The position numbers were made by a program, and so were the translations under genes. Shown here one piece after another: positions 7,470 through 29,488 of a DNA stretch of 46,669 nt (positions within the stretch are counted from its first letter, which is position 1; each line of letters opens with the position of its first letter). Under the pieces are notes generated by a model that ran no database searches, had not been told where the DNA came from, and saw only the letters and a list, made by a program, of their open reading frames with translations. The DNA is taken from sequence record SRR20825010_3322, one strand, 5' to 3'.

Positions 7470-8009
7470 CTATTCTAGACTGCCTGCCTGGGCCGGGGCT
7501 TCCGTGTTCAACGCAAACCTGTTTTCTTCGAGGAAGCGTGTGGCGGCCTGCTGCATTGTAATACCATACTGGAGCACAAAGCGGGCGGCATCGCCTTCTT
7601 CATTCTCAAGCAAAGCTTGTAGAAGCGCGATCTGTTTATGGTGATGGGTGATCCTGTCGCTGATCAGCACATCAATGCGGCTTGGGGCAACAGCCTCGGC
7701 AAAAAGAAGAGCCGCAAGGAACTCAGACCTGTTCTTGTCTGGCTTGGGAGAATGCGCCAGCGCCGTCTCCAGCGTGGTGCGGCCTTCAGCCGTCAAGCTG
7801 TAGACCTTGCGGTCTGGCCTGCTTTCCTGCGCCTCGGTGCGGCAATTCACCAGGCCTTCTTCGGTGAGCTTCGTCAGGGCAGGGTAGATGGAGCCATAGC
7901 TGGCTTCGGAGAAGAAGCTGAAAGCGCCTTCTGCAACCATCTTCTTGATGTCGTAGCCGGTGGTGTCGCCCAGGCTGAGAATGCCGAGGCACAGGGTGCG
8001 GATATCCAT
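7470..8009 (-). CDS. PadR/AphA family transcriptional regulator
   Basis: TGYDIKK..SYGSIYPALxKL..RKVYSLTxEGR winged helix. Confidence 0.93.
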   Translation of the reverse strand: MDIRTLCLGILSLGDTTGYDIKKMVAEGAFSFFSEASYGSIYPALTKLTEEGLVNCRTEAQESRPDRKVYSLTAEGRTTLETALAHSPKPDKNRSEFLAALLFAEAVAPSRIDVLISDRITHHHKQIALLQALLENEEGDAARFVLQYGITMQQAATRFLEENRFALNTEAPAQAGSLE

Positions 8010-8045: not shown

Positions 8046-8212
8046 TCAGTTGGGGAATTTCGCTCGAAAGTAAAGATGCAGGGGATAAAAAATTGCGCAT
8101 ATGTTGGCATCCTAATTGCTTATACGATTGCAGATAATGTGGCGCCAAGCCTTCGGAGTGCGATATTTCTCCGTGTTTTTAGGTGGTTGGCCGACATACG
8201 AAAGGTTTGATC

Positions 8213-9049
8213 ATGATTGCCGCACGTTTAAAAATGGGTTCGTTTCTGGCACATGGGGCAAAACTTGCCTGTGCAGCGCTTGTATTGGGGGGCTGTCAGT
8301 CCAGCAACCTCTGGCAGGGTGAAGAAGTTTTGGTTGAGGCGCGCCAGACCACGCTGGAACGCAGTGTTGGCTCGGTGAATGAAAACCACCGGGAACTGAA
8401 AGACCGCTTTAATGCGCTCGAGCGCCTTTATGTGGATTTGGTTCGCGGTTTGCGCACCCAGAGCGACCAACTCAAGGCGATAGAGCAGCAACTTGCCAAT
8501 TTCCAGAAAGACCCTGAACTGGCGGCAAGCCTGACAAGGGTGAAAAACGACCTTGGCGCTATGCGCAAGGACATGAAGACACTTGAGAACAGAGTGTATT
8601 CCGTTGAGGTAATGGACCGTCAGGCGGCGGCTTTCACGCCAAAAACTGATACTGCGCCCACGGGCACATCCCAAACGGGTGCTGATCCGGAACCTGCGGC
8701 CAACGCTGGTGCCGCCGCAGCAACGCCGGTGGATAACCGCCCTGCGATGCGCAGCCAGACATTTTATGGTGCACATTTGGCGTCTTACCGGTCGCAGGAT
8801 CAGGTGGCATCCGGCTGGCGCAGTCTCTTTAATGCCTTCTCAAATCAGCTCCAGGGGCTTGAGCCTCGTGTTTACACACAGAGCCAGGAGGGTATTGGTA
8901 CGTTCCTTCGCCTTATTGTTGGCCCGATGGAGAACGAAGGGCAGGCAGCAGCCCTTTGTGACAGTATTCGTGCCACCGGAGGTGAACAATACTGCAGGGT
9001 ATCTGAATACCAAGGCGAACCGCTGCCTGAGCCAGCACCGGCAGAATAA
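8213..9049 (+). CDS. Lipoprotein with coiled coil and C-terminal SPOR domain
   Basis: Lipobox LGGC; heptad-rich middle; YGAHLASY..W..L..RLIVGP..A..LC..C SPOR-like C-terminus. Confidence 0.8.
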   Translation: MIAARLKMGSFLAHGAKLACAALVLGGCQSSNLWQGEEVLVEARQTTLERSVGSVNENHRELKDRFNALERLYVDLVRGLRTQSDQLKAIEQQLANFQKDPELAASLTRVKNDLGAMRKDMKTLENRVYSVEVMDRQAAAFTPKTDTAPTGTSQTGADPEPAANAGAAAATPVDNRPAMRSQTFYGAHLASYRSQDQVASGWRSLFNAFSNQLQGLEPRVYTQSQEGIGTFLRLIVGPMENEGQAAALCDSIRATGGEQYCRVSEYQGEPLPEPAPAE

Positions 9050-9066: not shown

Positions 9067-9095
9067 GAAAACAGGGCCTCCGGGCCCTTTTTTTG
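9067..9095 (+). terminator. Intrinsic terminator after the SPOR gene
   Basis: AGGGCCT-cc-GGGCCCT hairpin followed by T-tract. Confidence 0.8.
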
Positions 9096-9182
9096 TGTCT
9101 AATTGGCAAAAATTTAAATAAATAACAGCGGATGGGGAAAGCCCTCTTGACAGAGAGCGACAAATCTTGTCGGATGCTCCAA

Positions 9183-9340
9183 CCTTCGACACACTCAGTC
9201 GTAGATGATCAACTTGGGGAGGTGCGATCATCTGGGCGCCAGCAATGGCAGCCACTGAGCTACGAAGGCCGGGCATACCTGGGGGTTCGCTCGGATTAGG
9301 CGCGGTGCTACGACCCATATAGGTTGTTCGCCGCGCCTTT
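9183..9340 (+). ncRNA. Putative structured non-coding RNA (family not recognised)
   Basis: Nested helices CCUUCG/CGAAGG, CUCAGU/ACUGAG, UAGAUGAUC/GAUCAUCUG, GCCA-GCAA-UGGC, then CCGGGC/GCUCGG and AGGCGCGG/CCGCGCCU hairpins; TTGACA at 9147-9152; no credible ORF. Confidence 0.65.
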
Positions 9341-9423
9341 CGCTATCTCACCCTATCTCTCACATCCTTGTGTCAGCAATATGACAAAACATCGCAGGTG
9401 ATACCTGTGAGGTGGGCTTAACC

Positions 9424-9597
9424 TTAGAACGTGAGTTTGCGGCCAAAGGATGGCTTCACGTCAACGGCCCATGATGGCTTCCTGAGAAGAGTGCAAAGGC
9501 GTTTGAGCACAAGTGCCATGCCGTCCTGCATGGAGGCCATGCCAATCGCACCAATCATAATAAACATCATCAGAATGAAGATATGTGAAAAAGCCAT
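9424..9597 (-). CDS. 57-aa small membrane protein, putatively SOS-induced (not in ORF track)
   Basis: Manual translation MAFSHIFILMMFIMIGAIGMASMQDGMALVLKRLCTLLRKPSWAVDVKPSFGRKLTF*; RBS AGGAG 8 nt upstream; promoter and two LexA boxes upstream. Confidence 0.75.
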   Translation of the reverse strand: MAFSHIFILMMFIMIGAIGMASMQDGMALVLKRLCTLLRKPSWAVDVKPSFGRKLTF

Positions 9598-9610: not shown

Positions 9611-9668
9611 GTTCCTTTTTTGTTCTTATAGGGGTGGTTGAGGTGCCGGTCAAGAACAAAAGTAGAAC
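9611..9668 (-). promoter_or_regulatory. Sigma70-type promoter flanked by two alphaproteobacterial LexA (SOS) boxes
   Basis: GTTC-ctttttt-GTTC (9611-9625) and GAAC-aaaagta-GAAC (9654-9668); minus-strand TTGACC (9653-9648)-N17-TATAAG (9630-9625). Confidence 0.85.
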
Positions 9669-9797
9669 ATATCGTATAAAGGTGGTTCTTCGAGGTGAGT
9701 AATTATATTGCGCTGAACTTCTGATCGGTGCTAAAGAGGAGGTAAGTGAGCGGGCATAATCCCGCGAATAAAAACAAAAATGAAAAAGAGATGAGTT

Positions 9798-11141
9798 ATG
9801 TCGCTAGACCCACGGGATCGCCCCGCAGGGGAGGCATCTGAGGGAAGTGGTCAAAACAGACCTGGCTCCAAGGAAAGTGCCTCACGCAGAAAGAGGAGAC
9901 GGCCGCGCCGCCGTGCCTCAAACCACAAGAGTGAGGTCCAAGGCACCACACCTTCGCAAACAGGCGCTTCCACCACAACAGAACAAGCTGTAGCCGATGC
10001 GGCTGTCAAGGGGCCATCACCCAGGCCCGCTCAACCGGGCGCGCGCAAGCCCAATGCTGAGCGTCAAGGCGCAGGGCCCGGCAACCGGCCGCCATTGCCG
10101 CCGGTGCGCACGGTGTATAGTGCGATCGATCTTGGCACCAATAATTGCCGGCTGCTGATCGCTCGCCCCACCCGTGGTGGTTTCCGCGTGATCGATGCCT
10201 TTTCCCGCATCGTTCGTCTGGGTGAGGGGGTATCCAACGGCAATATGCTATCGGACGCTGCGATGGACCGTACCATTGAAGCGCTGAAAGTTTGCGCAGA
10301 GAAAATCGCCCGCCGCAACGTGACCTGCATGCGCCACGTGGCGACAGAAGCCTGCCGCGTGGCCGATAACTCCGCAGAGTTTATTGCGCGCGTGAAGCGC
10401 GAAACCGGCTTGAACCTCGATGTTATCTCGGCGGGTGAAGAAGCACGCCTTGCGGTCATGGGCTGCCAGTCGCTTATCGCGCCCGGCAACAGGCATGCGC
10501 TCGTATTTGATATTGGTGGCGGTAGCACAGAGCTTATCTGGGTAAGGGTGCTGCCGGGCGGCCGCACAGAGATCAGCGGCTGGATGTCTATTCCCTGGGG
10601 GGTGGTCAACCTGTCGGAGCACTATGGTATCTCGGGCACCACGGTGCCACGGGACGAATATAATAAGATGGTCAATATTGTTGTGGATCATCTGCAAGCA
10701 TTTGAAGACGCTCACAGCGTCTCGGCCGTTGTCAAGAAGCGCCAGACCCAGTTTCTGGGCACGTCAGGTACTGTTACAACACTCGCGAGCCTGCACCTCA
10801 ATCTGCCGCGCTATATCCGCGAGAAGGTTGATGGTGCCTGGATGAAATCCAAAGATATTCATGCACTATCGCGTAGCGTGGCTGAGATGACCCATGAGGA
10901 ACGTTCTGCCCAGCCGTGTATCGGGCCTGAGCGCGCAGATCTCGTGGTAGCCGGGTGTGCCATTCTGGAGGCTATTTTGGGCATGTGGAATGTGCCGAGC
11001 CTGCGCGTCGCAGACCGGGGCATACGCGAAGGCATTTTGCGTGGTATGATGCAGTTAGAGAATATGCCGGTACGACAAGGACCGCGCCGCCGCGGGAGAA
11101 ACCCCGGGGGCAGACCAAATAAGGTGAAGACGCATGGCTAA
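9798..11141 (+). CDS. Ppx/GppA family phosphatase with long basic disordered N-terminus
   Basis: AIDLGTNNCRLL, VATEACR, EEARLA, DIGGGSTE, GTSGTVT, RADLVVAG, GIREG. Confidence 0.93.
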   Translation: MSLDPRDRPAGEASEGSGQNRPGSKESASRRKRRRPRRRASNHKSEVQGTTPSQTGASTTTEQAVADAAVKGPSPRPAQPGARKPNAERQGAGPGNRPPLPPVRTVYSAIDLGTNNCRLLIARPTRGGFRVIDAFSRIVRLGEGVSNGNMLSDAAMDRTIEALKVCAEKIARRNVTCMRHVATEACRVADNSAEFIARVKRETGLNLDVISAGEEARLAVMGCQSLIAPGNRHALVFDIGGGSTELIWVRVLPGGRTEISGWMSIPWGVVNLSEHYGISGTTVPRDEYNKMVNIVVDHLQAFEDAHSVSAVVKKRQTQFLGTSGTVTTLASLHLNLPRYIREKVDGAWMKSKDIHALSRSVAEMTHEERSAQPCIGPERADLVVAGCAILEAILGMWNVPSLRVADRGIREGILRGMMQLENMPVRQGPRRRGRNPGGRPNKVKTHG

Positions 11142-19079: not shown

Positions 19080-19170
19080 CCGTCATGCCCGTGCAGACGG
19101 GCATCCAGAATGGTTGATAACAAGCGAGCTGCGAACGGTTGCTGGACTCCCGCCTGCGCGGGAGTGACGG
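19080..19170. repeat. Palindromic REP-like element, copy 1
   Basis: GTCATGCCCG..CGGGCATCCAG--spacer--CTGGACTCCCGC..GCGGGAGTGAC; second copy at 29415. Confidence 0.85.
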
Positions 19171-29414: not shown

Positions 29415-29488
29415 CTGTCATGCCCCGCGTAGGCGGGCATCCAGCCGCTGCCACCAATGCTGGACTCCCGCTTTCGCGGGAGTGACAG
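29415..29488. repeat. Palindromic REP-like element, copy 2
   Basis: GTCATGCCC..GCGGGCATCCAG--spacer--CTGGACTCCCGC-tttc-GCGGGAGTGAC between convergent genes. Confidence 0.85.

Follow-up and report, generated by a model that had tools for sequence, protein, structure and literature searches.

A family-specific structured small RNA with two G-tract loops in the Kordiimonadaceae, and its possible role as a decoy

A transcription unit between a SPOR-domain gene and ppx

The DNA analysed here is a stretch of 46,669 nucleotides from sequence record SRR20825010_3322, hereafter the window, in which a gene for a SPOR-domain protein (8183-9049) is followed by the element under study, by a short convergent gene on the opposite strand and then by ppx, rlmE and guaB. 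The element, which extends from 9182 to about 9345 on the + strand, is a real, stand-alone, chromosomal and single-copy small RNA (sRNA) of about 165 nt, specific to the Kordiimonadaceae. RNAs of this kind are already known; the family itself is new, restricted to one clade and without an entry in Rfam. An earlier inspection of the letters alone (the sequence-only reading) had proposed a stand-alone RNA at this place, a proposal now supported by a conserved promoter and terminator, by a cDNA-type 5' end at 9182 and by a 167-nt contig equal to the RNA.

Upstream, the SPOR-domain gene is ended by an intrinsic-terminator-like hairpin with a T run (9073-9098, + strand; stem 9073-9088, followed by TTTTTTTGTGT). 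This hairpin and the TTGACA beyond it had both been singled out in the sequence-only reading, and both are indeed there. The TTGACA (9147-9152, + strand) is a -35 box preceded by a C; it reads CTTGACA in 20 of the 21 aligned relatives from the same genus, the remaining one (L022) having CTTGACT, and is kept as CTTGAC or ATTGAC in other genera. Its partner, 17 nt further on, is the -10-like hexamer TCGGAT (9170-9175, + strand), which had been judged weak and is non-canonical, lacking the usual A at the second position. Relatives from the same genus carry TNNGAT or TCCCAT there, and just the final AT is kept in every genus. A simple sigma-70 scan called no promoter at the element, and comparison with the upstream regions of groES, hsp20 and grpE gave no shared motif by which an alternative sigma factor could be assigned. 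The conserved CTTGACA-N17-TNNGAT constitutes the RNA's own promoter.

Transcription probably starts at 9182 (+ strand), 7 nt past the -10-like hexamer and 1 nt before the first helix, at a position that is also a junction in an assembled contig. The contigs in question come from two runs of two studies, X10 and X19, which are guessed to be RNA, and they show neither levels nor true ends. In X10, a 639-letter contig begins to match the genome at 9182, continues unbroken past 9700 and has 25 non-genomic letters directly before 9182. We take these letters to be the 3' part of a template-switching oligonucleotide, in which case they would mark the 5' end of a + strand cDNA. The contig from X19 is 167 letters long and spans 9176-9338 only, ending at 9338. 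Both contigs fit a discrete transcript, for which they provide support and not proof. Some read-through past the terminator hairpin, P6, is likely, because the X10 contig continues through it and, to judge from its length, would reach to about 9795, beside an A-rich tract. This tract (9771-9790), situated just 5' of the ppx start codon, may have primed oligo-dT cDNA synthesis, which would explain why read-through was captured.

Fold, conservation and distribution

On the + strand, positions 9170-9345 fold with a minimum free energy (MFE) of -80.7 kcal/mol, compared with a mean of -61.8 (standard deviation 4.15) for shuffled sequences (z -4.55; none of 200 shuffles was as stable). The - strand gives a z of -4.15, as expected for a helix-rich element. 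Every helix drawn in the sequence-only reading recurs in the MFE fold at the same positions, all on the + strand. The 5' domain (9183-9268) is a three-way junction closed by P1 (9183-9188/9263-9268) and P2 (9194-9199/9254-9259), from which P3 (9202-9234) and P4 (9235-9253) extend. The lower helix of P3 (9202-9210/9226-9234) bears the apex AACUUGGGGAGGUGC (9211-9225), in which a 4-bp helix, ACUU/AGGU (9212-9215/9220-9223), presents a GGGG loop (9216-9219). P4 (9235-9241/9246-9253) has a GCAA apex of the GNRA type. The P5 hairpin (9269-9294) combines CCGGGC/GCUCGG with an inner helix ACC/GGU and the apex CUGGGGG, the loop being UGGG (9280-9283). The apexes of P3 and P5 are therefore built alike, each from an internal loop, a helix of 3-4 bp and a G-tract loop.

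The 3' part of the RNA begins with the A/U linker AUU (9295-9297), which precedes the terminator hairpin and may be part of an Hfq-binding module; the A at 9298 opens P6, and relatives show AUUA, AAUA or AUUG here. P6 and its U-rich tail occupy 9298-9348 on the + strand, with helices at 9298-9307/9329-9338 and 9310-9315/9322-9327. The U tail is weak in the window species (UUUCGCUAUCU), and longer U runs are found in many relatives. With its own promoter and 5' end, a Rho-independent terminator preceded by an A/U linker, and a conserved single-stranded seed, the RNA has the anatomy of a trans-encoded Hfq-type sRNA.

When 22 sequences were folded independently, the same six-helix architecture was obtained, by our reading, in 19; in the other three (L014, L016 and L024), P3, P4 and P6 were kept and P1/P2 or P5 differed. 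A first covariance model, made from the five closest sequences and the window structure, was used to align all 22. Of the 1193 pair cells in this alignment 93.1% are paired, and two-sided changes occur in 30 of the 55 pairs, values reached by none of 500 shuffles, with slid controls at 36-44%. From 60 loci, a second model yielded 36 distinct sequences; here the paired share of the 1931 pair cells is 93.8%, and covariation scores 0.425, as against 0.175 in shuffles (0/500 reaching it; slid controls 39-44%). The fold is conserved, and compensatory changes on both sides affect 38 of its 55 pairs; covariation of this kind was what the sequence-only reading had asked to be checked. Alignments fitted to a model favour the structure of that model, and the independent folds of the 22 sequences serve as the check on this.

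The two-sided changes include all six pairs of P1, all five of the main P2 helix and all nine of lower P3. In these three helices covariation is heavy; P4, P5 and lower P6 hardly vary inside the genus, and their covariation shows only from one genus to another. The strand, which had been argued from G-U pairs to be the + strand, can be read from the same alignment: there are 216 G-U cells against 19 A-C cells, and the 93.8% of cells paired on the + strand would fall to 83.6% if the opposite strand were the RNA.

The exposed parts that do not vary are almost solely the two apical G-tract loops, CUUGGGGAGG in P3 and CUGGGGG in P5. Across homologues the P3 apex reads CUUGGGGAGGU, and its UGGGGAG, which resembles a strong Shine-Dalgarno site, is identical in all 36 distinct sequences; the P5 apex is CUGGGGG or a near variant, with the G run kept in all homologues. 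The junction strands J2/3 and J3/4 differ among relatives in both sequence and length, and so does the apex of P4, where the GNRA tetraloop noticed at first is present in the window species and is not a general feature. This variation in junction strands and P4 apex speaks against a ligand-binding aptamer. A riboswitch had been thought unlikely from the start, and the RNA is not a classical one: its junction nucleotides are unconserved, and ppx is separated from it by 450-950 nt and a convergent gene. The accompanying statement that no gene of the same strand lies close downstream is right only in part, ppx being on the same strand and starting at 9798, 450 nt past the terminator, with the convergent gene intervening. 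Among loci the RNA and ppx are about 450 to 950 nt apart, and one genus has another gene inserted.

The RNA was found in the Kordiimonadaceae only. With blastn, the element was found once each in 21 of 24 genomes of the same genus. The second model matched 35 of 45 genomes of the family, comprising 28 of the 31 in the genus and representing five of 11 genera. Among 151 genomes drawn from the order, there is a match in 27 of the 37 family members (the window's own genome, G000, also matches and is counted apart), as against one of 113 genomes from nine other families, where the match is 87 nt long, has an E value of 4.8e-4 and lacks the synteny. An exact pattern built from the invariant columns occurs at 25 places among 185,579 species genomes, of which 20 are titled Kordiimonas or Kordiimonadaceae, four 'Alphaproteobacteria bacterium' and one 'Sphingomonadales bacterium'; it also occurs in 18 metagenome contigs.

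Gene order at the locus is constant. Every locus with enough flanking sequence, the 18 metagenome contigs included, shows the SPOR-domain gene, the RNA, the small gene on the opposite strand and ppx-rlmE-guaB on the strand of the RNA. As to genomes without a match, in G006 the locus is cut by a contig edge. In each of two non-matching genera a weak, divergent copy occupies the corresponding position (L092, E 1.4e-3; L096, E 1.7e-3), the copy in L096 with the same type of promoter, CTTGACA-N17-CAGGAT. In four genera (five genomes) there is no room for the RNA between the SPOR-domain gene and the small gene. Two variations of the neighbourhood may be recorded here. In L092 (317-638; genus g19), an extra open reading frame (ORF) of 107 amino acids on the opposite strand separates the divergent RNA copy from the small gene and breaks the usual adjacency. 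On the other side, a PadR-family regulator gene (7470-8009, - strand) stands between pssA and the SPOR-domain gene in some species and is missing in others of the genus, pssA then being followed directly by the SPOR-domain gene.

In keeping with the earlier failure to recognise a known RNA class, no Rfam 15 covariance model matched anywhere in the window at gathering score, and with permissive filters (E up to 10) no match overlapped 9147-9345; ARAGORN found no tRNA or tmRNA gene in the window. The genome to which the window belongs, a single contig of 4,179,304 bases that is 100% complete, holds one full copy of the element, the remaining matches being 16-18 nt long, and relatives hold one copy each, apart from two contigs within one fragmented metagenome-assembled genome. 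Since there is one copy only, the element is not a dispersed repeat. A miniature inverted-repeat transposable element or a repetitive extragenic palindrome, which the sequence-only reading would have recognised by many dispersed copies, is accordingly rejected on the strength of one copy in 4.18 Mb, and a repeat scan of the window returned nothing involving the element. A mobile origin is likewise rejected: blastn against plasmids and phages found no match, nor did a pattern scan of viral contigs. So is a protein-coding reading, as the ORFs of 55 (+ strand) and 84 amino acids (- strand) that overlap the element belong to no Pfam family. Over the 28 homologues examined, out of 36 distinct ones, no start codon is conserved 3' of the Shine-Dalgarno-like motif and ORF lengths over the element are inconsistent (14-53 amino acids on the + strand, 13-51 on the - strand).

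The RNA thus adds a well-supported structured family, with 55 base pairs of which 38 show compensatory changes, to the inventory of a little-studied family of marine Alphaproteobacteria. Elsewhere in the window, a 29-nt element with the inverted repeat CTCCCGC..GCGGGAG is present in two copies that are 93% alike (19140-19168 and 29458-29486); it may be a terminator or a member of a short repeat family.

Possible partners of the G-tract loops

The reading that we tentatively prefer, with a probability of about 0.4, is that this stand-alone sRNA acts as a decoy for C-rich sRNAs of the anti-Shine-Dalgarno type. The G-tract loops of P3 and P5 would imitate strong ribosome-binding sites and would pair with the C/U-rich, anti-Shine-Dalgarno-type seeds of other sRNAs. 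By acting as such a decoy, or sponge, the RNA would free the mRNA targets of these C-rich sRNAs, probably on Hfq, whose gene is present in the genome.

The sRNA aR8/MmgR occurs in almost all Alphaproteobacteria, and its targets are largely unknown outside Caulobacter. The copy in the same genome would be the best candidate partner: an invariant single-stranded stretch, UUUCCUCCCUGAGCC, could pair over 10-11 nt with the P3 apex. It is encoded outside the window, at G000:C1:2830547-2830620 (locus L139, 248-321), and matches RF00519 with 57.6 bits, the gathering score being 41. Of the 45 family genomes 44 have RF00519, with the single-stranded stretch GUUUCCUCCCUGAGCC identical in every sequence displayed. 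The P3 apex CUUGGGGAGG could pair with CCUCCCUGAG through eight Watson-Crick and two G-U pairs, and through 11 pairs where the apex has GCUU. Over the 26 species surveyed that have both RNAs (G016 was left out), the contiguous pairing with G-U allowed is at least 10 in 23, nine in one and eight in two; in G046, which is among the 23, the top-scoring run lies outside the P3 apex. The divergent RNA copies keep eight pairs with aR8, made of different letters. Across the genome, only 59 sites fit the 10-mer pairing pattern, one of them, a ribosome-binding site, being identical to the apex over 12 letters. Because few sites fit, and several of these are ribosome-binding sites, the P3 apex looks like an aR8 target.

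A number of observations weigh against the decoy reading. Taken alone, the complementarity lacks significance: when the aR8 segment is shuffled at matched composition, a run as long as the observed one turns up somewhere in the RNA in roughly 10% of trials. Per 200 trials, species with runs of 10-11 gave 5-35 such cases, and the three species whose runs are 8-9 gave 70-125. G-U pairs make up two of the ten, the 4-bp helix encloses half of the site, and an alternative register in the same apex scores equally. As aR8 is invariant, no co-variation between the partners can be read. Furthermore, aR8 occurs in genera that do not have the RNA, aR8 contains no good match for the P5 loop, and 8-mers complementary to the loops are not enriched in 5' regions (58 sense versus 121 antisense). 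As for the transcript, no run recorded as RNA contains the locus, runs X21 and X22 of the same species label being without it too, and to this are added the weak U tail of the window species and the continuation of the X10 contig past the terminator.

The sponge idea put forward in the sequence-only reading has thus gained a concrete candidate, aR8/MmgR over 10-11 nt, and a precedent, Caulobacter CrfA, at a run length that shuffles also attain. That aR8 specifically is the partner, as predicted from complementarity, we regard as doubtful. Similarly doubtful is a fuller scheme, in which an independently evolved, family-specific decoy with two mimics of ribosome-binding sites would titrate aR8/MmgR together with other C-rich sRNAs, and in which read-through may couple it to the SOS-controlled peptide of the small gene and to ppx-rlmE-guaB.

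The genome contains further C-rich candidates. Intergenic hairpins with YCCUCCCCC loops, several of them followed by terminators or T runs, are situated on G000:C1 near 1007394, 1133772, 2051159, 2498393, 2878022, 3495646 and 4127905 (L098-L104), and they look like anti-Shine-Dalgarno sRNAs of the cuckoo type. The hairpin near 1133772 is just downstream of an HSP20 gene; the one near 2878022 is kept, according to blastn, only in the four closest species. A search with Rfam over ten C-rich hairpin regions gave no match, and among the C-rich candidates of the genome only aR8 matched Rfam. The sequence CCTCCCCC is only mildly enriched outside ORFs (19 of 84). One additional region, at G000:C1:3729557 (L140), has a hairpin loop GUUUCCUCCCAAGAGU, complementary to the P3 apex save one G, followed by more hairpins with C-rich loops; it gives a weak ar14 match (20.9 bits, E 0.17).

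The sRNA anatomy would fit equally well an RNA that regulates mRNAs directly in trans, its G-tract loops pairing with C-rich sites. Such sites could be internal anti-Shine-Dalgarno stretches that occlude a ribosome-binding site, so that pairing would activate translation, or could be in coding regions. The invariant exposed loops look like seeds, Hfq is present, and for GsrN and katG, the mirror case, alphaproteobacterial sRNA-mRNA pairing between C-rich and G-rich segments is established (PMC5869019). However, G-rich seeds cannot pair with purine-rich ribosome-binding sites, the commonest target of sRNAs, and the screen for 8-mers yielded neither enrichment, as the counts above indicate, nor an outstanding candidate. 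It returned 42 genes with an 8-mer match between -120 and +30, with gene starts called crudely and with raw k-mer matches that are mostly the antisense of ribosome-binding sites. Direct regulation of mRNAs is in our judgement unlikely.

A protein could also be the partner, P3 and P5 forming two similar modules that bind a possibly dimeric protein, which the RNA would sequester or deliver. The two apexes are alike, and P4, P5 and lower P6 are nearly invariant in the genus though covariation is tolerable there, which hints at sequence-specific recognition. Against this, the stems of P4, P5 and P6 do covary at the level of the family, GGA is found in one loop only, and no candidate protein of the same distribution was sought or found. 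Neither CsrA (PF02599) nor ProQ was found in the 100% complete genome. Of the protein-binding alternative offered by the sequence-only reading, a CsrA-type partner is therefore ruled out; binding of some other protein survives as a distinctly unlikely explanation.

A role in cis is improbable. The RNA would then open a longer transcript that passes P6, runs antisense across the small gene and reaches ppx-rlmE-guaB, with the terminator serving as an attenuator or with read-through silencing the small gene. Such a role would suit the fixed order of SPOR-domain gene, RNA, small gene and ppx in all flanked loci, the unbroken X10 contig from 9182 to beyond 9700 and the weak U tail of this species; it is at odds with the conservation of the terminator hairpin and of longer U runs in relatives, with the lack of conserved junction nucleotides, and with the variable distance to ppx and the gene inserted there in one genus. 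A contig over two genes, moreover, does not show a single transcript, and no antiterminator was seen in a search that was not exhaustive.

The convergent small gene (9424-9597, - strand) is separate from the RNA. It encodes a single-helix membrane protein of 57 amino acids that is conserved across the family and belongs to no Pfam or NCBIfam family. An ad-hoc filter recognised it in 30 of 36 loci (one case is doubtful), with lengths of 53-74 amino acids, and it occurs without the RNA in four genera (five genomes). Its promoter region (9611-9668, - strand) comprises a -35 box TTGACC (9648-9653) and a -10 box TATAAG (9625-9630), flanked by two boxes of the GTTC-N7-GTTC type (9611-9625 and 9654-9668, - strand); of the 30 upstream regions displayed, 29 show these boxes. 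In two reports (PMC4211646, PMC6237742), GTTCN7GTTC is given as the LexA site of Caulobacter, and SidA as a 29-amino-acid, SOS-induced membrane inhibitor of division. Because LexA-type boxes flank its promoter, the small gene likely encodes an SOS-induced membrane peptide. The protein may be considered a candidate SidA-like division inhibitor or TisB-like peptide. A C-rich stretch upstream of the small gene was considered as a pairing site and rejected: it is the promoter spacer and is not conserved.

That the RNA is a type I antitoxin-like partner of this small hydrophobic protein, in the manner of RatA/TxpA or IstR-1/TisB, is highly improbable. The conserved gene is tail-to-tail with the RNA and has two LexA-type boxes at its promoter, and its stop codon falls inside the RNA terminator in one genus and 23-37 nt past it in two species, but the gene exists without the RNA in the genera just mentioned, another gene stands between the two in one genus, many species have a separate small-gene terminator, and in 14 of 16 species duplexes between the RNA and the small-gene mRNA had energies within 2 standard deviations of those of shuffles or still poorer, an uninformative test given its 8 shuffles and unrestricted whole-length duplexes. 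Were the decoy reading to fail, the RNA would stay a clean candidate for a new structured noncoding RNA, with promoter, ends and alignment all defined.

Comparison with known regulatory RNAs

Several known systems share features with the Kordiimonadaceae RNA. In the SOS-controlled type I toxin-antitoxin pairs TisB/IstR-1 and DinQ/AgrB and with SidA of Caulobacter, as here, a small membrane protein gene with LexA-type boxes adjoins a constitutive-looking sRNA promoter; the present locus differs in that four genera have the small gene and lack the RNA, in that there is no specific complementarity, and in that the two overlap in few species. With protein sponges of the CsrB/RsmZ type the RNA has in common the repeated purine-rich motifs on hairpin apexes, but no CsrA was found in the window genome, and there are just two such loops, one containing GGA.

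A closer resemblance is found with the cuckoo/ar14 RNAs, GsrN and aR8/MmgR, which belong to the same phylum-level setting and use the same logic of pairing through short G/C-rich loops, and the window genome has YCCUCCCCC hairpins of its own. In alphaproteobacterial sRNAs the seed is usually a C-rich loop: the cuckoo/ar14 RNAs carry CCUCCUCCC loops (PMC4615179), and in GsrN six cytosines bind a G tract (PMC5869019). Whereas these RNAs carry C tracts, the Kordiimonadaceae RNA carries G tracts, as their mirror image, and would therefore be a partner or target mimic of C-rich sRNAs and not one of their number. Its conserved G tracts, in resembling ribosome-binding sites, have the opposite polarity to most sRNA seeds.

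The nearest parallel is CrfA of Caulobacter crescentus, which has been shown (PMC12559287) to be an Hfq-dependent sponge of the aR8 sRNAs SisA-D, whose G/A-rich second stem-loop pairs with the aR8 10-mer core UUUCCUCCCU. The Kordiimonadaceae RNA, which as a decoy would be a functional analogue of CrfA, is likewise a stand-alone alphaproteobacterial sRNA with a G-rich stem-loop complementary to this core, in a genome that has aR8 and encodes Hfq. Unlike CrfA, with which it was compared by description only and to which it shows no detected relation in sequence or in Rfam, it is larger and more structured, having a three-way junction and a second G-tract hairpin, and its pairing with aR8 is a predicted one, of 10-11 nt with two G-U pairs and not statistically distinctive. 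If the RNA does titrate aR8, sponge control of aR8 arose more than once, with CrfA in Caulobacter and with the present RNA in the Kordiimonadaceae, and the latter gives a second case in which sponge-type control of the aR8/MmgR family can be put directly to the test.

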